Source: Bacteroidota bacterium (GTDB taxonomy: Bacteria > Bacteroidota > Bacteroidia > CAIKAF01). From it: a DNA stretch of 64,000 bases. The DNA lies in assembly GCA_023432985.1 (NCBI GenBank), contig JAEZEQ010000062.1, forward strand, positions 69,907 through 133,906, written 5' to 3'. The stretch's first letter is position 1; the number at the start of each line of letters is the position of its first letter. This document shows positions 41,120 through 49,333 of the stretch, piece by piece. The translations under genes were made by a program, and so were the position numbers. The notes beneath the pieces are model-generated. The model did not search any database and was not told where the DNA came from. It saw only the letters and a program-made list of their open reading frames with translations.

Positions 41120-41608
41120 TTAAGCATAGGTGCCCAAACGTTTCATCAATTCCTGACGCGCCAAATAAATACGACTCTTAACCGTGCCTATAGGCAAAGC
41201 CAATTCGTCCGAAATTTCTTTGTATTTATAACCGGCATAATACAGCTCGAACGGCTCACGTATTGACGAATCTAAACGCGCTATTTCTTGTTGAATCTCG
41301 GAATATTCTAAACCCGAATTCAACTCCTGAACCATGCCCGGAATTATGATATCGGACAAGGATTGCTTTTGCCAACGTTTTGATTTTCGATAATCATTGA
41401 TGAATACATTGCGCATTATGGTGTATAACCAGGCTTTTAAATTACTATGGGACGCAAAAGAATCCTTATATAATAAAGCCTTTACCATAGTCTCCTGAAA
41501 TAAATCATCGCCCGCAGCCCTGTTGCCCGTAAGGTTACGTGCAAAACTTCGCAAACTGTCGCTATAGGAAACTAAAATAGCATCGAAACTGTAATCGGAT
41601 GTATTCAT
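41120..41608 (-). CDS. RNA polymerase ECF-type sigma factor (sigma-70 family)
   Basis: 162 aa. Region 2 (DDLFQETMVKAL...AWLYTIMRNVFINDYRK) and region 4 (ISDELALPIGTVKSRIYLARQELMKRL) are recognisable. No adjacent anti-sigma gene is present. Confidence 0.85.
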   Translation of the reverse strand: MNTSDYSFDAILVSYSDSLRSFARNLTGNRAAGDDLFQETMVKALLYKDSFASHSNLKAWLYTIMRNVFINDYRKSKRWQKQSLSDIIIPGMVQELNSGLEYSEIQQEIARLDSSIREPFELYYAGYKYKEISDELALPIGTVKSRIYLARQELMKRLGTYA

Positions 41609-41847
41609 TTGTATTGGTATTTGTTGAACACAAAGATACTTTGTTTAACTTTTTCGATTAAACATTAAACAAGAAATATTATTAAAAAAATAAAATACAC
41701 TGCCAGTCAGGCTATTACAAAAAAAACAGGATAAAAATGTTTAACAAAAGAACAGGAGCTATTCGAATAGATTAAACAAGAAATGAAGGAGAGGGACTCT
41801 TGCTAAGTTTTTTTTAACAGTCGAAATGGGAATATTTGCGAAAATAA

Positions 41848-42828
41848 TTAAGAAATCTGATCGAGGCGCTGAATTAATTCGCTATAACTTTTCAGGTGAC
41901 TAATATGTTTTGCCAATTGCAAATCCGGATTATGCATGAGGGGGCCGGAGACCCATACTTCTATATTTGAAAATGGGTTTTCCTTAAATCGGTTCAGATA
42001 TTTTTGCAGCGAAAAGGTAGTAAATCCGGCTGTGAAATAGGTAAACAAATGAGTAGGATTATGGGTTTGCATAAATATTTCCAAATCATTAAAAGGCATA
42101 GATTGCCCAAGATAGATAACATGGAATCCTCTTTTAACTATGGCATATTTGGCAAATAATAATCCGATTTCATGCCATTCGTTTTCGGGCAAAAAAAGTA
42201 TGAATTTCTCCTGATTTATATGCTTGCCACGCGGCAATTTATCAATTTCGACTATGGTTCTTCTTCGGATAAGATTGGCCATAAAATGCTCTTGAGCCAC
42301 ATTCACTTCGCCCAAGGACCAGAGCATTCCAATTTTAGTCAGAAATGGAATAAGTATAAGCAGCATACTTTGTTCGAATCCAATTTTGCGAATGGCATCT
42401 TCCATGGTTTGGTCGAATTTATCCTCATCCAAATCGATCATGGCAATCAACAATGCTTCTATATTCCAGCTGTAAAAAAAATCCGGATCATTATTTTCTT
42501 CGCCAAGTTTATTAATGGCTTCGGCTATTTCGGAAGAATGCATGGCAGCCACTTTCGAAATCTTATATCCATTCTTTAGTAATAGGGCAATATTCAGGAT
42601 TTGTTTTAATTGCGCGTCATCGTAGAAGCGTATTTGGGTGGACGTGCGATGCGGCACTATAATGCCATACCTCTGCTCCCATATGCGCAGGGTATGTGCT
42701 TTTATTTGTGATAATTTTTCTACTTCTCGTATGGAATAAGACACTTTACAGGCTAGTTTACTATACGAAACAAATATACAAGCAAATTGTTCGCAAAAAA
42801 ACAAAAAAAGTACGACCTGCTTTTGCAA
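41848..42828 (-). CDS. CarH/LitR-like MerR-family regulator with C-terminal adenosylcobalamin-binding domain (putative light sensor)
   Basis: A MerR HTH (YSIREVEKLSQIKAHTLRIWEQRYGIIVP...RFYDDAQLKQIL) is followed by a helical bundle carrying W-x9-E-H (WSLGEVNVAQEH), which matches the W131/E141/H142 AdoCbl-contacting triad spacing of CarH. A Rossmann-like domain with E-x-H-x-x-G (ENEWHEIG) lies 38 residues downstream. Confidence 0.6.
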   Translation of the reverse strand: MQKQVVLFLFFCEQFACIFVSYSKLACKVSYSIREVEKLSQIKAHTLRIWEQRYGIIVPHRTSTQIRFYDDAQLKQILNIALLLKNGYKISKVAAMHSSEIAEAINKLGEENNDPDFFYSWNIEALLIAMIDLDEDKFDQTMEDAIRKIGFEQSMLLILIPFLTKIGMLWSLGEVNVAQEHFMANLIRRRTIVEIDKLPRGKHINQEKFILFLPENEWHEIGLLFAKYAIVKRGFHVIYLGQSMPFNDLEIFMQTHNPTHLFTYFTAGFTTFSLQKYLNRFKENPFSNIEVWVSGPLMHNPDLQLAKHISHLKSYSELIQRLDQIS

Positions 42829-42861
42829 ATCGTACTTAAAATAATCTATTAAAACGGGATT

Positions 42862-44160
42862 TTACTTCAATCCAAACTGCTTTTTAACAGCTGCTACATA
42901 GTCGAGTTTTTCCCAAGTAAACAATTCTACTTTTACTTTCTTTTCTATTTTTTTCAATCCTTCCTGACGTATAAATGTTTTGGTAACCGTCTCGGATTCT
43001 TTCCCGAAATGCCCATATGCCGCAGTTTCGCTATACATTGGATTACGCAGTTTCAAACGGGTTTCTATTCCATAAGGTGTCATATCGAAAATCTTTGCAA
43101 TTTTAGCTGCAATTTCACCATCGCTCAATTTCACTTTCGAAGTTCCTTCTGTATCGATAAAAATATTCATTGGTTCTTTAACCCCAATGGCGTAAGAAAC
43201 TTGCACCAATACACGATCGCATAAACCGGCGGCTACCAGATTTTTGGCAATATGGCGTGTTGCATATGCGGCCGAACGGTCTACTTTTGAAGGGTCTTTT
43301 CCGCTAAAAGCTCCACCCCCATGCGCACCACGTCCACCGTATGTATCAACGATAATCTTACGTCCGGTCAGGCCCGTATCGCCATGCGGTCCACCGATCA
43401 CAAATTTACCGGTTGGATTTATATGGTATTTGATTTTATCATTGAACAAATGTTTGTACTTGGCATATTTCTTTTTCACACGGGGAATAAGAATTTCGAC
43501 CATGTCTTTATGAATCTTAGCCAACATTTCTTTTTCAGCTTTCACGATGTCCGCAGCTTTTCCCGATTTGGGGGCAATAAAATCATCGTGTTGGGTGCTG
43601 ATTACTATGGTATCAATGCGAACAGGTCTGTGCTTATCGTCGTACTCGAGGGTAACCTGCGCTTTTGCATCGGGACGTAAATAACTGATTGATTTCATTT
43701 CACGTCGCAATGCTGCAAGTTCCATCAAAATTCTATGCGATAAATCCAATGCCAATGGCATATAATTTTCGGTTTCATTGGTAGCATAACCAAACATCAT
43801 ACCTTGATCGCCGGCACCTTGATCTTCTTTTTTCTTTTTGTCAACACCCCGATTAATATCGGCACTTTGTTCGTGTATAGCCGATAATATACCACAAGAA
43901 TTGGCCTCGAACATATACTCGCTTTTGGTATATCCGATTTTACGAATAACCGCACGGGTGATTTCCTGTACATCGAGATAAGCAGATGATTTAACCTCCC
44001 CGGCTAATACAACCTGACCGGTAGTTACCAAGGTTTCACATGCTACTTTCGACTCAGGATCCCAAGCTAAAAAGTTATCAATTAATGCATCGGATATTTG
44101 GTCGGCAACCTTGTCCGGATGCCCCTCTGAAACAGATTCTGACGTAAATAAATATGACAT
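42862..44160 (-). CDS. metK: S-adenosylmethionine synthetase
   Basis: 432 aa reading [25 protein letters not shown]..., with [19 protein letters not shown] and collinearity throughout. Confidence 0.95.
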
Positions 44161-44269: not shown

Positions 44270-45673
44270 ATGAAAAAAAAGAAGGAAGTAATCTTGCAGC
44301 AGGTAAAAATATTGGACCTGGCTGCAGAAGGTAAATCTATAGCCAAGCCGGATGAAAAGGTGATTTTTGTAAAAAATGCCGTTCCCGGGGATGTGGCAGA
44401 CTTACGTATTACCCGCTCTAAAAGCAGTTTTGCCGAGGCTGAAGCCATTTTTTTTCATGAAAAATCACCTTTGCGAACCGAACCGGCATGTGCCCATTTC
44501 GGCATTTGCGGAGGCTGTGCCCGACAAGATTTAGCCTATACATCTCAATTGGAATTTAAACAAAAATGGGTAAAAGATGCTTTCGAAAGAATCGGAAAAT
44601 TCGAATTTGCTCCCATTAATCCCATTATTGGATGCGAAAATATTTTTCGTTACCGCAATAAAATGGAATATGGGTTTACTGATTTTTCCTGGCTGACTAA
44701 TGAGGAAATTCAATCCGGACAAAATTTCGAAAGAAGAGGCATAGGCCTGCATATACCCGGAAAATTTGACAAAATCCTTCATATAGACGATTGTCATCTA
44801 CAGGATGCCTGGGGCGACCGGGTACGCAACTTCGTCAGAAATTATGCAATCGAACAGGATATTTCTTTCTTTAATATTCGTCAACAAACAGGTATGTTAC
44901 GTACCCTCCTAATTCGCTTGACGGAATATGGAGAAAAAATGGTACTCCTGGCTTTCACTGAAAATAATCAGGAAATTATTCAACCCATGATGGAAGCTAT
45001 ACGCACGGAATTCCCCGAAACAAACGCATTGCTCTATGTCATCAATAACAAGAAAAATGACACCATTTTCGACCTGCCTGTACACACTTTTTATGGCAAG
45101 GATTATATATGCGAACAATTGCATCATGCACGCTATAAAATCGGACCTAAATCTTTCTTTCAAACCAATAGCAAACAGGCCGAAACTTTATATGCTATAA
45201 CGAAAGATTTTGCCGAATTAAGCAATACGGAAAATGTATACGATTTGTATACCGGTACCGGATCTATTGCCTGCTATATTGCCGATAAAGCCAAAAAAGT
45301 TGTAGGCGTGGAATATGTACCCGAAGCAGTGGAAGACGCCTTTGTAAATAAGGAATGGAATAAACTGGACAATGTGGATTTTTATGCCGGTGATATGAAA
45401 GACGTACTGAACGATGCTTTCGTAGAAAAACACGGCGCACCGGATGTAATTATTACAGACCCGCCCAGAGCAGGTATGCACCCCGATGTGGTTCAAACCA
45501 TATTGAAACTGAACCCGAAAATAATAGTATATGTCAGCTGCAATGTCGCCACGCAAGCCCGCGATCTGGCTATGTTATGCGAAGCATATGAGGTAAGTAA
45601 AGTACAACCGGTAGACATGTTCCCCCATACCCATCACGTAGAAAATGTGGTGCAACTGAAACGCAAATCCTAA
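44270..45673 (+). CDS. rlmD: 23S rRNA (uracil-5-)-methyltransferase RlmD/RumA family
   Basis: 467 aa with an N-terminal TRAM domain, a Cys cluster (CAHFGICGGC) and a C-terminal class I SAM MTase with the catalytic Cys region (VYVSCNVAT). Confidence 0.85.
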   Translation: MKKKKEVILQQVKILDLAAEGKSIAKPDEKVIFVKNAVPGDVADLRITRSKSSFAEAEAIFFHEKSPLRTEPACAHFGICGGCARQDLAYTSQLEFKQKWVKDAFERIGKFEFAPINPIIGCENIFRYRNKMEYGFTDFSWLTNEEIQSGQNFERRGIGLHIPGKFDKILHIDDCHLQDAWGDRVRNFVRNYAIEQDISFFNIRQQTGMLRTLLIRLTEYGEKMVLLAFTENNQEIIQPMMEAIRTEFPETNALLYVINNKKNDTIFDLPVHTFYGKDYICEQLHHARYKIGPKSFFQTNSKQAETLYAITKDFAELSNTENVYDLYTGTGSIACYIADKAKKVVGVEYVPEAVEDAFVNKEWNKLDNVDFYAGDMKDVLNDAFVEKHGAPDVIITDPPRAGMHPDVVQTILKLNPKIIVYVSCNVATQARDLAMLCEAYEVSKVQPVDMFPHTHHVENVVQLKRKS

Positions 45674-45707
45674 TTTTGTAATATCCTTTTTTTTGTATCT
45701 TTACTGT

Positions 45708-45827
45708 ATGAGCAAAAAAACTTTTTTCAAAATATTCTTCATTTTTCTTTTGGGTAGTACGAGCCTACTTGCTTCATCATGTGGCACTTCCAAAAAATGC
45801 GACTGCCCTACTTTTGGAAGAAGATAA
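45708..45827 (+). CDS. unannotated small ORF: 39-aa Cys-rich putative lipopeptide (MSKKTFFKIFFIFLLGSTSLLASSCGTSKKCDCPTFGRR)
   Basis: ATG at 45708 and TAA at 45825-45827. It has a textbook signal peptide with a lipobox-like LLASSC, and the 15-residue mature part has the Cys pattern C-x5-C-x-C. It sits in the 238-bp gap upstream of the TonB-dependent receptor and is absent from the ORF track only because it is under 60 aa. Confidence 0.3.
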   Translation: MSKKTFFKIFFIFLLGSTSLLASSCGTSKKCDCPTFGRR

Positions 45828-45911
45828 GATTTGTCCACCTTTTTTTTCATTTTCTTAAACAAAAGTCGAACTATTTTGTTTCTGTAGGTATAAAACTAAA
45901 AATACAGATTC

Positions 45912-48287
45912 ATGTTTCGTATATTCCTTCTTTTGGCTTTGTTCTCAGCTACCCTTTCTCACGCACAAAACGGGTATATAAAAGGACAAATTAAAAATGC
46001 GATAACCAATGAGCCCGTACTTTTTGCCAATATAGTGGCCGAAGGTCAATCTAAAGGTAGTACCAGCGATACAGCCGGATTTTTCAGTATAGGTCCCCTC
46101 GAGCCGGGCTTTGTTACCCTCGCGATTTCTGCGCTGGGATATGAAACGTTTCGATACAGAGATATACAAGTCACCAATGCGGGTTCTGCCTATGTAGACA
46201 TCAAGCTTGAACCTGCCAATCAGTCGTTGAGCGAGGTTGTTATCAAAGCCAGTCCCTTCAATCAGACTTATGAAAGTCCCATTTCGAATCGCACCATTGG
46301 TCTGGCCGAAATTGAAAGAAATCCGGGCGGAAACAGGGATATAAGTAATGTATTAAAAAGCTTTCCGGGTGTGGCTTCTACGCCGGCTTTTCGGAATGAT
46401 ATCATCATACGCGGCGGTTCTCCTTCCGAAAATCGATTCTACCTGGATGGCGTGGAAGTACCCGTAATAAACCACTTTCAAACCCAGGGTGCATCGGGGG
46501 GACCAACAGGTATTATCAATGTAAACCTGATCCGAAATGTAGACTTTTTATCGGGCGCATTTCCTGCCGCCAGAGGAAATGCACTCAGTTCGGTTTTGGA
46601 ATTTAATCAGGTCGATGGCAATAGAGATAAATGGAAATATAGATTCGCACTGGGAAGCAGTGATGCCGCTTTTAAGGCCGATGGTCCGATTGGAAAAAAC
46701 AGCAGCTTTATCGGTTCGGCGCGGGTTTCTTATCTGCAATTCTTGTTCAAAGCGCTCAAGCTTCCCTTTTTACCGACCTATTACGACTATCAATTTAAAT
46801 ACAAATGGAATATTAATCCCAAAAATGAAATCAGCATCATTTCACTCGGCGCCATTGACCGCATGAAACTTAATCTCTCGGAAAATGAAACCGAAAAACA
46901 ACGCTATTTACTCAATACCATTCCGGTTAATAATCAGTGGAATTACACACTGGGATTGGTTTACAAAAGATATGCGAAAAACGGAACTCATAGTTTTGTA
47001 TTGAGCAGAAATATGTTCGACAACCGGGTTGTAAAATATAAAGACAACGACGAATCCAATCCCGACAACTTGAATACAGATTATCACAGTCAGGAAAGCG
47101 AAAATAAATTTCGATACGAATATTTATATAGAAAAGGAAGCTGGAAAATCGTGAGCGGTGCAGGTGTTGAATATTCACGATATTATAATCGTTCCTATAT
47201 AAAATTTGCCACTCCCGCCGGCCCCGATACGCTTAATGCCATTTCGACCTTACATTTATGGCAAGGCTCTGTATTCACACAGGCGAGTCGCACTTTCTTT
47301 AAAGAAAGATGGGTTCTTTCATTGGGATTGCGTTTCGACAACAACAATTTCAATGCGCATATGGCCAATCCTCTCAATCAATTCTCACCCCGCCTATCCA
47401 GCTCGGTGCGCATAACGGAATGGATGAGCTTTAATGCACATGTGGGTCGCTATTTCCAAAGACCTTCTTATACCCTTATGGGCTATAGAAATAATCAGGA
47501 CGAATTGGCAAATAAATCGCTAAAATATATACGTGCCGACCATTTCATTGCCGGATTCGATTTCACTCCAACTTCTACTACCAAAATCACCTTAGAAGGT
47601 TTTTATAAAGCCTATGCACAATATCCATTCTCTTTACGAGACAGCATATCGCTGGCCAATCAGGGAGCGGGATTTAGCGTCGTGGGTAATGAGCCCGCCG
47701 ATAGCAGAGGAAAAGGAAGGGCATATGGATTGGAATTTATGATTCAACAAAAAATATGGAAAGGCTTTTATGGCATTTTATCCTATACCTATGTAGTGAG
47801 CGAATTTCAGGATAAAAACAATGCTTTTATTCCGTCCAACTGGGACAACAGACATTTGTTGACCTTGACTTCGGGTTATAAATTTAAACGCAATTGGGAA
47901 GTGGGCCTGCGTTGGAGATATGTAGGCGGAGCACCTTTTACGCCTATCGATACCAATTTGTCGCTTCAAACAACCGTTTATGATATTTACCAAAGAGGTA
48001 TTAGTGATAATGATAAAATCAATGCCGAACGCGGACGCGCTTTCCACCAACTCGACCTACGCGTAGATAAAAGCTGGTTCTTCAAAAAATGGAGTTTGAA
48101 TATTTACGTGGATGTGCAAAATGTGTATAATTTCAAATACAAAGCACAAGATTATTTGACCATTGAAAGGGATGCAAACGGAGCAGCTGTTAAAGATCCG
48201 TCGAATCCTCAAATGTATAAATCAAAATTCATAGAAAACCTTACGGGAACGGTATTGCCTTCTATAGGTGTTATCGTAGATTTCTAA
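45912..48287 (+). CDS. TonB-dependent receptor with N-terminal carboxypeptidase-regulatory-like (CarboxypepD_reg) domain
   Basis: 791 aa with a signal peptide, then GYIKGQIKNAITNEPVLFANIVAEG...DTAGFFSI (CarboxypepD_reg), a plug domain (..IRGGSPSENRFYLDGVEV..) and a long beta-barrel ending in a C-terminal aromatic residue. Confidence 0.85.
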   Translation: MFRIFLLLALFSATLSHAQNGYIKGQIKNAITNEPVLFANIVAEGQSKGSTSDTAGFFSIGPLEPGFVTLAISALGYETFRYRDIQVTNAGSAYVDIKLEPANQSLSEVVIKASPFNQTYESPISNRTIGLAEIERNPGGNRDISNVLKSFPGVASTPAFRNDIIIRGGSPSENRFYLDGVEVPVINHFQTQGASGGPTGIINVNLIRNVDFLSGAFPAARGNALSSVLEFNQVDGNRDKWKYRFALGSSDAAFKADGPIGKNSSFIGSARVSYLQFLFKALKLPFLPTYYDYQFKYKWNINPKNEISIISLGAIDRMKLNLSENETEKQRYLLNTIPVNNQWNYTLGLVYKRYAKNGTHSFVLSRNMFDNRVVKYKDNDESNPDNLNTDYHSQESENKFRYEYLYRKGSWKIVSGAGVEYSRYYNRSYIKFATPAGPDTLNAISTLHLWQGSVFTQASRTFFKERWVLSLGLRFDNNNFNAHMANPLNQFSPRLSSSVRITEWMSFNAHVGRYFQRPSYTLMGYRNNQDELANKSLKYIRADHFIAGFDFTPTSTTKITLEGFYKAYAQYPFSLRDSISLANQGAGFSVVGNEPADSRGKGRAYGLEFMIQQKIWKGFYGILSYTYVVSEFQDKNNAFIPSNWDNRHLLTLTSGYKFKRNWEVGLRWRYVGGAPFTPIDTNLSLQTTVYDIYQRGISDNDKINAERGRAFHQLDLRVDKSWFFKKWSLNIYVDVQNVYNFKYKAQDYLTIERDANGAAVKDPSNPQMYKSKFIENLTGTVLPSIGVIVDF

Positions 48288-48303
48288 AAGCAGTCACCAT
48301 AAC

Positions 48304-48369
48304 GGCAGGGCTTGTGTCTCCCCCCCCCCACCCTCACACAACATTCACAAGCCTTTGCCGTTTCTTTTA
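48304..48369 (+). terminator. terminator-like hairpin after the TonB-dependent receptor with a large C-rich loop
   Basis: Stem GGCAGGGCUUGUG (48304-48316) pairs with CACAAGCCUUUGCC (48346-48359) as 4 bp, a 1-nt bulge, then 9 bp. The 29-nt loop contains C10 A C3 UCACACA, and the hairpin is followed by GUUUCUUUU. Confidence 0.5.
48320..48329 (+). repeat. homopolymeric C10 tract (G10 on the minus strand) in an intergenic region
   Basis: ctccccccccccaccc; ten consecutive C in a ~38-40% GC genome. Confidence 0.9.
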
Positions 48370-48460
48370 ATCCCGGTATCCGGAAAAAGATAATTCGTAT
48401 TAAAGCGTAATACTAGTATATTTAGCATGCTGTTGAACTGATATAAAACAAGATAAATAC

Positions 48461-49333
48461 ATGCTGATTGGCACTCATTTAAGTATTCCGCAGGTTGAAT
48501 TGAAATCCGATTTTGTAATCAAATCTTTACAAGAGGAAGATCAGGGAAAAACTCAAGGAGAAGGTCGACCTCACCGACATAATTTTTTCACGGTTATTTG
48601 GATCCATAAAGGCTCGGGAACTCATCAAATCGACTTTAAGGATTATCCCATTGAGGATAACAGCATACATTTTGTAAGTCCCCAACAAGTGCATTGGTTC
48701 AAAAGTAATCCCGGAATTAATGGATGGCTTTTCTTGTTTAATGAGCGCTTTATAGAATCATACGGCTTAGGTTCCCGTTTCTTGCAGGCACTGGGTTTAT
48801 TCACCGGATATACTCAACCCGAACCTTTATTTTTGCATCAAAACATGTTCGAAAAACTGGATGCATATTGCCGGGCAGCAAAAAATGAAATTACAGAACT
48901 CAAAGAATTCCACCCCGATGCCGCTGCTGCTTATTTGAAACTATTCCTGCTTGAATGCAGTCGAATTAAAGAAAAAAAGCACGTGGAATCGGATTTATAT
49001 CATTCCGGCAATCGTATATTTCAACAGTTTATGGAGAATCTGGAATTGCATTTTCAAGAAAAACATAAGGTTGCCGACTATGCCGAATTACAACATATTA
49101 CACCCAATTATCTGAATGAGGTTGTGAAAGAAAGCTCGGGCATCAGTGCCAAGGAACATATACTGAAACGCATTACCTTAGAGGCCATGCGCTTTGCGAC
49201 ACATAGCGACATTAATACCAAAGAAACGGCTTATATACTCGGCTTTGAAGACCCCTCTCATTTTTCGAAATTTTTCAAGAAAAGATGCGGGGTCGATTTC
49301 ACCGGATTCAGAGAAAGTTTACGCTATAAATAG
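48461..49333 (+). CDS. AraC family transcriptional regulator
   Basis: 290 aa with an N-terminal cupin-like sensing domain and a C-terminal dual HTH (..ELHFQEKHKVADYAELQHITPNYLNEVVKESSGISAKEHILKRI..). Confidence 0.8.
   Translation: MLIGTHLSIPQVELKSDFVIKSLQEEDQGKTQGEGRPHRHNFFTVIWIHKGSGTHQIDFKDYPIEDNSIHFVSPQQVHWFKSNPGINGWLFLFNERFIESYGLGSRFLQALGLFTGYTQPEPLFLHQNMFEKLDAYCRAAKNEITELKEFHPDAAAAYLKLFLLECSRIKEKKHVESDLYHSGNRIFQQFMENLELHFQEKHKVADYAELQHITPNYLNEVVKESSGISAKEHILKRITLEAMRFATHSDINTKETAYILGFEDPSHFSKFFKKRCGVDFTGFRESLRYK

Follow-up and report, generated by a model that had tools for sequence, protein, structure and literature searches.

Introduction

Four described systems come closest to the gene reported here. 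The entericidins EcnA and EcnB (PF08085) are proteobacterial lipoproteins made from precursors of fewer than 50 residues, with a lipoprotein signal and a very short mature part, and their stand-alone genes are easily missed; they are amphipathic-helix peptides that carry only the lipidated Cys and form a toxin/antidote pair. MgrB-type regulators of enterobacteria are minimal membrane-anchored peptides, attached through a transmembrane helix and not through a lipobox, with few conserved periplasmic residues that include two cysteines, both essential in MgrB. LptM/YifL (LPAM_2, PF13627) is a small periplasm-facing lipoprotein whose function, a role in LptD maturation tied to the proteobacterial Lpt genes, resides in a short lipidated stretch at the N-terminus. 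Finally, SusD-like and other accessory lipoproteins of TonB-dependent transporters are large, usually surface-exposed by means of an acidic export signal, encoded downstream of the transporter and conserved with it. In this study, we analyzed a 39-codon open reading frame (ORF) at 45708..45827 on the forward strand of a 64,000-nucleotide stretch of DNA (hereafter the window) from a Bacteroidota bacterium (GenBank assembly GCA_023432985.1, contig JAEZEQ010000062.1, positions 69,907 to 133,906). The ORF lies between the rRNA methyltransferase gene rlmD and a gene for a TonB-dependent receptor, and had first been picked out from the letters of the window alone, in what we call the sequence-only reading. 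Our best overall explanation, to which we assign a probability of about 0.6, is that it is the gene of a 39-residue prolipoprotein, whose product would be a periplasm-facing lipopeptide acting through a free C-D-C thiol pair.

Results

Coding evidence from strains and homologues

The ORF starts with ATG at 45708, has 39 codons and ends with TAA at 45825-45827, and its translation is MSKKTFFKIFFIFLLGSTSLLASSCGTSKKCDCPTFGRR. To compare closely related copies, we took 11 further copies of the locus (L010-L020), which came from independent sequencing runs, from contigs of the variants in the 90% cluster of the receptor; these receptor variants were 1-10 residues apart. Among the 12 strain copies (the window included; alignment A1) there were six ORF haplotypes, all of which encoded the identical peptide. 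Seven columns of the ORF were variable (45713, 45734, 45758, 45761, 45773, 45782 and 45785), and every one of the seven was a third codon position with a synonymous change. Variability by codon position was thus 0/0/7 of 40 each (0 of 80 for the first two positions together), compared with 13/4/54 of 468 in rlmD and 23/2/117 of 792 in the receptor gene. At third positions the ORF varied at a rate of 0.175, versus 0.115 for rlmD and 0.148 for the receptor; that is, its third positions vary like those of real genes, and its first and second positions are frozen. If changes were placed uniformly, the chance that all seven would fall in position 3 is (1/3)^7 = 4.6e-4. The 84-nucleotide spacer 3' of the peptide stop codon had 13 variable columns, including a 1-nucleotide indel.

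Homologous loci were reached in two ways. First, the contigs of RlmD relatives with 77% and 71% identity, which are closer than the relatives of the receptor, yielded L021-L025 and L026, respectively. Second, JGI metagenomes were scanned with a degenerate DNA pattern encoding K-C-D-C-P-T-F-G-x-R, which found L028 and L030 and also returned L027, of the same lineage as L026. Divided at the predicted cleavage site into signal and mature parts, the peptides read MSKKTFFKIFFIFLLGSTSLLASS and CGTSKKCDCPTFGRR in the window, MKSTLLVRITALFFLLAVVSGTQA and CKTSSKCDCPTFGRR at L026:6020-6139 (called there as a 39-residue gene), MKKNTIIKFLLLGAMFLGIGSMQS and CTTSKKCDCPTFGKR at L021:6012-6131, MNKKVIVRLVLACLIATVCITTQS and CTTSKKCDCPTWGKR at L024:6081-6200, ...KHTLLIRITALLLLIVAAGSIQA (5' part cut) and CKTSSKCDCPTFGRR at L028, and MRTGILRTAKWILFSAMMGFLIQS and CALSKKKCDCPTFGKSKAGSERAV at L030:3542-3687. 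Five of the six genes have 39 codons (inferred for L028, where the start codon is cut by the end of the locus) and L030 has 48; ATG is the start codon in all five homologues whose 5' end is present, and the Cys at the predicted cleavage site is residue 25 in all six. The most distant homologue, L030, lies on a Bacteroidota-like contig; its peptide is extended by 9 residues at the C-terminus and has one additional Lys ahead of C-D-C.

The pattern of divergence was very different in the two parts of the peptide. The mature consensus C-x-T-S-x-K-C-D-C-P-T-[F/W]-G-[K/R]-R hardly varies across lineages, with the core K-C-D-C-P-T-F-G unchanged save for F to W in one lineage, whereas the signal peptide has diverged. 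The nucleotides that never vary in the family alignment (A4) belong to the K-C-D-C-P-T-x-G block, where they occupy the first and second positions of the codons. Of the mature codons, 2 are identical between the window and L026, 11 differ synonymously and 2 nonsynonymously; the corresponding figures for the signal part are 1, 3 and 20. Over the lineages, the mature part shows 6-11 synonymous versus 0-4 nonsynonymous codon differences, its nucleotide identity is 56-82% and the differences are mostly silent; in the signal part, 19-20 of the 24 codons are nonsynonymous relative to the window copy (11-20 over all pairs), with length and hydrophobic character kept. These data show that the 39-codon ORF is a genuine gene for a protein, that strong purifying selection acts on its frame and on the 15 C-terminal residues, and that the peptide family is present in this species and at least five other Bacteroidota lineages.

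Two further pattern searches should be mentioned. A metagenome pattern requiring K-K before C-D-C gave 0 matches, because the JGI homologues carry S-K or K-K-K at that place or, in L029, are cut by the contig end. A scan of viral contigs gave a single match, FWHVKCDCPTCGNG, within a phage protein (L031:2664-3038, ...VKCDCPTCGNG...); this protein is without a signal peptide, and we rejected the match as an unrelated chance occurrence.

Predicted signal peptide, lipobox and localization

Residues 1-24 (45708..45779, forward strand) form a predicted signal peptide with a basic n-region (KK), a hydrophobic core and the lipobox L-A-S-S before Cys25, the predicted site of lipidation and cleavage (45780-45782). 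The mature peptide would then comprise 15 residues (45780..45824), within which the core motif K-C-D-C-P-T-F-G (45795..45818) holds two free thiols, Cys31 and Cys33. We applied a lipobox rule of the PROSITE PS51257 type ([LIVMFWSTAG]2-[LIVMFYSTAGCQ]-[AGS]-C, with the Cys between residues 15 and 35), and all six homologues passed it. Such a match is rarer by chance than the ORF itself, with only 2 of the 432 small ATG ORFs of the window passing, the peptide ORF among them. All six homologues also have K or R within the first 8 residues and a best 10-residue Kyte-Doolittle mean of 2.2-3.1, and the +1 Cys is invariant in all of them despite the divergence of the signal peptide. The mature net charge is +3 in the five 39-codon homologues, with a K/S swap in L026 and L028, and +4 in the extended peptide of L030. 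Export of lipoproteins to the surface in Bacteroidota needs a signal of the K-(D/E)2 or S-D-D type at positions +2 to +6 (PMC5080379). No D or E was found at these positions in any of the six homologues, and because this acidic signal is absent, the mature lipopeptide should stay on a periplasm-facing leaflet.

Thus, the gene most likely encodes a secreted microprotein, a lipoprotein. The sequence-only reading had proposed a genuine coding ORF that was overlooked on account of its length, with a lipoprotein-type signal, a Cys-rich mature part of 15 residues and a composition that spoke against surface export. All of this was supported. Its coordinates and peptide were recovered by our own translation, and the finding that it named as fatal to the proposal, a reading frame not conserved in relatives, is the opposite of what the homologues show.

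The alternative that survives best, though we consider it unlikely, is that the precursor is cut before Cys25 by signal peptidase I rather than lipidated, which would release a soluble 15-mer with three free Cys (C-x5-C-x-C) that binds metal or acts as a signal in the periplasm or outside the cell. The residues at -3 to -1 (A-S-S, T-Q-A, I-Q-S, M-Q-S) fit the signal peptidase I rule, and three Cys would make a better metal site than two. The textbook lipobox is L-[A/S]-[G/A]-C, from which the Gln at -2 in five of the six homologues departs, although the PROSITE-like rule allows Gln. However, signal peptidase I substrates are unconstrained at +1, a position at which all six homologues have Cys, and the lipobox rule singles out all six of them but hardly any other small ORF of the window.

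Gene neighbourhood and the link to the receptor

In the window, rlmD (44270..45673, forward strand), which encodes the 23S rRNA U1939 methyltransferase (TIGR00479, E = 9.8e-104), ends 34 nucleotides before the peptide ATG, and the peptide stop codon is followed after 84 nucleotides by the ATG of the TonB-dependent receptor (45912..48287, forward strand; 791 residues, Pfam CarbopepD_reg_2 and Plug). The 238-nucleotide spacer between these two genes (45674-45911), which contains the peptide gene, has a G+C content of 30%. The gene order of the window is metK(-), rlmD, peptide, receptor, AraC and a peptidyl-prolyl isomerase (PPIase) gene(-). In L021-L025 it is metK(-), rlmD, TPMT, peptide, a 148-residue gene(-), AraC and PPIase(-); in L026 and L027, rlmD, TPMT, peptide, metK, MerR/B12 and an extracytoplasmic function (ECF) sigma factor; in L028, which is cut upstream of the peptide gene, peptide and metK; and in L030, a JmjC-like gene(-), peptide, feoA and feoB. 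The conserved upstream neighbour is therefore rlmD with or without TPMT, located 19-34 nucleotides 5' of the peptide gene, and rlmD or rlmD-TPMT precedes the peptide gene in three of the other lineages with upstream sequence.

The sequence-only reading had suggested a possible functional tie of the peptide to the receptor and had asked for conservation upstream of orthologous receptors. Such a tie was not supported. The nearest receptor orthologue among 5.8 billion proteins has 70% identity, and we examined four orthologous receptor loci (L001-L004, 47-70% identity) from genomes of GTDB: in none of them did the 4 kb flanking the receptor on each side contain such an ORF or the motif, and their upstream neighbours differ. 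The receptor adjoins the peptide gene only in the window lineage, TPMT and the 148-residue gene holding that slot in the closest relatives, where the peptide gene follows rlmD-TPMT with no receptor nearby. Our results indicate that the peptide gene travels with rlmD and is not tied to the adjoining TonB-dependent receptor.

A separate observation concerns the history of this region. A local gene replacement distinguishes window 45674-49333 from L021:5410-7608 and L024:5482-7680: the relatives have TPMT 5' of the peptide gene and the convergent 148-residue gene between the peptide gene and the AraC regulator; the window has the receptor between the peptide gene and AraC, and lacks TPMT and the 148-residue gene, with metK, rlmD, AraC and PPIase syntenic. 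A search of the whole window found no TPMT gene, no 148-residue gene and no paralogue of the peptide, whose gene is thus single-copy. In addition, the window (41120-44160, reverse strand) and L026 (6243-9294) share a gene block that stays together but is inverted relative to rlmD; it consists of metK, an ECF sigma factor and a MerR-family regulator, which is CarH/LitR-like, possibly light-responsive, and has a B12-binding domain. At L030:3542-6186, the peptide gene stands 99 nucleotides 5' of feoA-feoB, for ferrous iron transport, with a gene for an FkbM-like methyltransferase and a JmjC-like gene upstream.

The neighbourhood data also bear on an improbable reading in which the thiol lipopeptide is an accessory of metal uptake that binds iron or another metal and hands it to the downstream transporter (the receptor here, FeoAB in L030). 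In two of the four contexts, the next co-directional gene, 84-99 nucleotides away, is indeed an uptake system, some receptor homologues bear automated siderophore-receptor names, and no canonical terminator was detected between the peptide gene and the receptor in the window. However, L021 and L024 have a terminator and a convergent gene next, L026, L027 and L028 have metK, and the four orthologous receptors do without such a peptide; two adjacencies out of four can be chance.

The missing terminator might equally suit a cis-acting role as a regulatory upstream ORF or attenuator, which the sequence-only reading had considered; receptor expression would then be controlled through translation of the ORF and an inverted repeat. 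The ORF is short, points the same way as the receptor gene and lies close to it on the 5' side; within the coding region, at its 3' end, two 9-bp arms (45787-45795 and 45812-45820) form a perfect inverted repeat, exactly where that reading had placed it, and a T8 run follows. Among 2000 dinucleotide shuffles of 45674-45911, however, a perfect 9-bp inverted repeat occurred in 267 (13%) and an ATG ORF of at least 39 codons in 220 (11%), so that ORF length and repeat by themselves are within chance expectation. The repeat is not kept in the homologues (alignment A4), the intergenic region folds no better than shuffles (z = -0.47) and it matched no Rfam family. Because the repeat is unconserved and the RNA fold is not significant, we judge the repeat (45787..45820) to be an incidental by-product of codon choice. 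What is conserved is the amino-acid sequence and not the RNA, given the largely silent nucleotide differences in the mature part, and the downstream element varies (TonB-dependent receptor, terminator plus convergent gene, metK, feoAB). In L021 and L024, a clean hairpin and T-run follow the peptide stop codon and the next gene is convergent; because an intrinsic terminator ends the unit there and the next gene converges, the peptide gene cannot be a leader in these two lineages, which have no gene for it to regulate. A control element of this kind is accordingly very improbable.

Nor is it at all probable that the peptide is the precursor of a ribosomally synthesized and post-translationally modified peptide (RiPP), the third role suggested by the sequence-only reading, with modified Ser/Thr and Cys, for example as lanthionine-type rings. 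Cys, Ser and Thr abound in the small core (T-S ... C-x-C ... T), and genes related to S-adenosylmethionine (rlmD, TPMT, metK) are nearby, but no RiPP-modifying enzyme, no protease and no exporter occurs in any of the four gene contexts, the leader is a Sec/lipoprotein signal peptide that has diverged and offers no conserved recognition sequence, and TPMT is absent from the window. Taken together, the comparative data exclude the attenuator and argue against the receptor-partner and RiPP readings.

The antisense frame

An antisense ORF of 53 residues with a TTG start (45701..45862, reverse strand) shares its third codon positions with the peptide gene. Its frame is stop-free in every lineage (window, L021, L024, L026 and L030), which creates look-alike ORFs that could mislead gene finders. 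One might thus suppose that the sense strand bears no gene, the ORF being either a product of chance, as the frequency of such ORFs among the shuffles would allow, or the shadow of a real gene at 45862-45701, and on the antisense strand the strain polymorphisms amount to 6 synonymous and 1 nonsynonymous changes. We regard this as highly improbable. The antisense starts are TTG or GTG and unconserved (in L027 the start falls within the conserved block), the lengths range from 35 to 64 residues, and a 1-nucleotide indel at 45838 shifts the frame in L011 and L016. Moreover, Arg codon swaps that are silent in the sense frame (AGA to CGC) alter the antisense protein, so that about 8 of 16 antisense residues differ between the window and L026, compared with 2 of 15 in the sense peptide. 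The sense frame keeps its ATG, its Cys25 and, in five homologues, its 39 codons, and its conserved block begins at the lipobox Cys and ends at the stop codon or, in L030, where the C-terminal extension begins. On these grounds we rejected the antisense ORF as a real gene and judged it a by-product.

Finally, an arrest peptide of the SecM/VemP type (a secretion monitor) was rejected, as the signal peptide of a 39-mer would still be in the ribosome tunnel at the stop codon and there is no conserved downstream gene.

Candidate promoters and transcription

A sigma-70 promoter scan is not applicable to Bacteroidota. We compared the locus with flavobacterial consensus boxes. The flavobacterial sigma-A box TAnnTTTG occupies positions -12 to -5 (PMC9723704). 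A candidate -7 box of this type, TATCTTTA (45696..45703, forward strand; 7 of 8 matches), ends 4 nucleotides before the peptide ATG, and four lineages carry a motif of this kind at a distance of 4-6 nucleotides from the ATG (the window TATCTTTA, L024 TACTTTTA, L026 TATCTTGG and L021 TAACTTTG). With a box at -12 to -5, transcription would start on or next to the peptide ATG and the mRNA would be leaderless, a type that accounts for a minority of about 4-5%. An alternative candidate box, TAATTTTG (45671..45678, forward strand; 8 of 8), overlaps the rlmD stop codon and would give a 5' untranslated region of 25 nucleotides. The peptide gene may thus be either the last cistron of an rlmD operon or a leaderless gene with its own -7 box abutting the ATG.

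Some other features of the region were noted. The public contigs L015 and L020 start at 45700 and 45686, that is, 8 and 22 nucleotides 5' of the peptide ATG; these ends could mark transcript 5' ends if the runs were RNA, or may be mere assembly breaks. Farther downstream, TATTTTGT at 45872-45879 matches TAnnTTGY, the box of the alternative flavobacterial promoter class SM5 (PMC9723704), 32 nucleotides before the receptor ATG and within a strain-invariant stretch, and may be the receptor's own promoter. Next to it, L011 and L015 carry a clustered divergent haplotype at 45887-45930 in a locus otherwise about 99% identical, with 9 substitutions just 5' of the receptor ATG and further differences within codons 1-10 of the receptor's signal peptide; this pattern looks like the trace of a short stretch of recombination, or like a translation-start region under relaxed constraint.

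Discussion

The steps of the proposed mechanism can be outlined as follows. The precursor would be exported and then processed at Cys25 by the lipoprotein pathway (Lgt and signal peptidase II), giving a 15-residue lipopeptide with a net charge of +3, acyl-C-x-T-S-x-K-C-D-C-P-T-[F/W]-G-[K/R]-R. This product would remain on a periplasm-facing membrane leaflet, where its basic residues would hold it at the anionic surface. Once Cys25 is lipidated, the only reactive groups would be the two C-D-C thiols, beside P-T-[F/W]-G, and this pair probably makes a redox- or metal-dependent contact with a partner protein of the envelope. The near-total invariance of the 15-residue peptide implies a specific molecular contact. 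As to its genomic setting, the peptide gene appears to be inherited together with rlmD, and its position before a TonB-dependent receptor would be an accident of the local gene replacement in the window lineage.

Several points weigh against this explanation. A thiol, metal or redox role is our best guess from the motif, and we found no partner gene that is conserved across the four gene contexts. The family was found in six lineages, three of which are tied to the window by synteny, so that independent contexts are few. When 1.84 billion representatives were searched exhaustively with phmmer, there were 0 hits at E <= 0.001, but a 39-residue query has little power in such a search and most copies are uncalled as genes. 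The sites T-Q-A|C and I-Q-S|C could also be cleaved by signal peptidase I, and the promoter boxes are consensus matches only.

Known families did not account for the peptide. It had no Pfam match up to E = 10, only signal-peptide noise in NCBIfam (E = 0.36 and 2.5), no result in a word-index protein search, and no paper containing the motif string in the literature library that was searched. The ORF has no gene call in any public assembly of the source organism, which is uncultured, including scaffold_98 of ENA ERZ28593685, and an exact-sequence look-up found only the L026 version on record, as an unnamed gene (one of the six lineage versions called, from a GC-rich lineage). By its predicted signal and lipobox, the peptide is a new family of very small bacterial lipoproteins, unusual in its minimal mature length and C-x-C core; to our knowledge, a mature part of 15 residues is among the smallest of bacterial lipoproteins.

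If the prolipoprotein reading is right, a mature part of this size would lie at the lower size limit for lipoproteins and offer an easy target for synthesis, mutagenesis and partner search. More generally, the gene adds a conserved and strongly constrained member to the small-protein blind spot of Bacteroidota annotation. It also carries a methodological caution, as adjacency to a transporter in one genome hinted at a functional link that the comparative data removed. We can also imagine, as a rather doubtful extension, that a 15-residue lipid-anchored C-x-C module serves as a mobile membrane-bound thiol cofactor of the Bacteroidota envelope, which would pass metal to Feo or TonB-dependent transporters or act in disulfide shuttling or periplasmic redox sensing; if true, this would define a new functional class of micro-lipoprotein.

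The comparison with known systems places the peptide apart from each of them. It resembles the SusD-like and other accessory lipoproteins of TonB-dependent transporters in that a lipoprotein gene adjoins, and is co-directional with, the gene of a receptor with an N-terminal CarboxypepD_reg domain, but it has 15 residues, no export signal and an upstream position, and is absent from orthologous receptor loci. With LptM/YifL it shares small size, a predicted periplasm-facing location and a short lipidated N-terminal stretch as the candidate carrier of function; it has no Pfam match to PF13627, and LptM has a mature part that is some three times longer and lacks C-x-C. The entericidins are similar in having a precursor of fewer than 50 residues, a lipoprotein signal with a very short mature part and a stand-alone, easily missed gene. 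The peptide has no sequence relationship to them, and differs in its shorter mature part, its Pro/Gly-rich composition, its C-D-C pair and its single-copy gene. Finally, MgrB-type regulators are not homologous to the peptide and space their cysteines differently, and the likeness is one of functional analogy only, a minimal membrane-anchored peptide with few conserved periplasmic residues including two cysteines; because of this shared two-cysteine minimal design, it is plausible that the peptide, too, contacts a larger membrane protein in a redox-sensitive manner.

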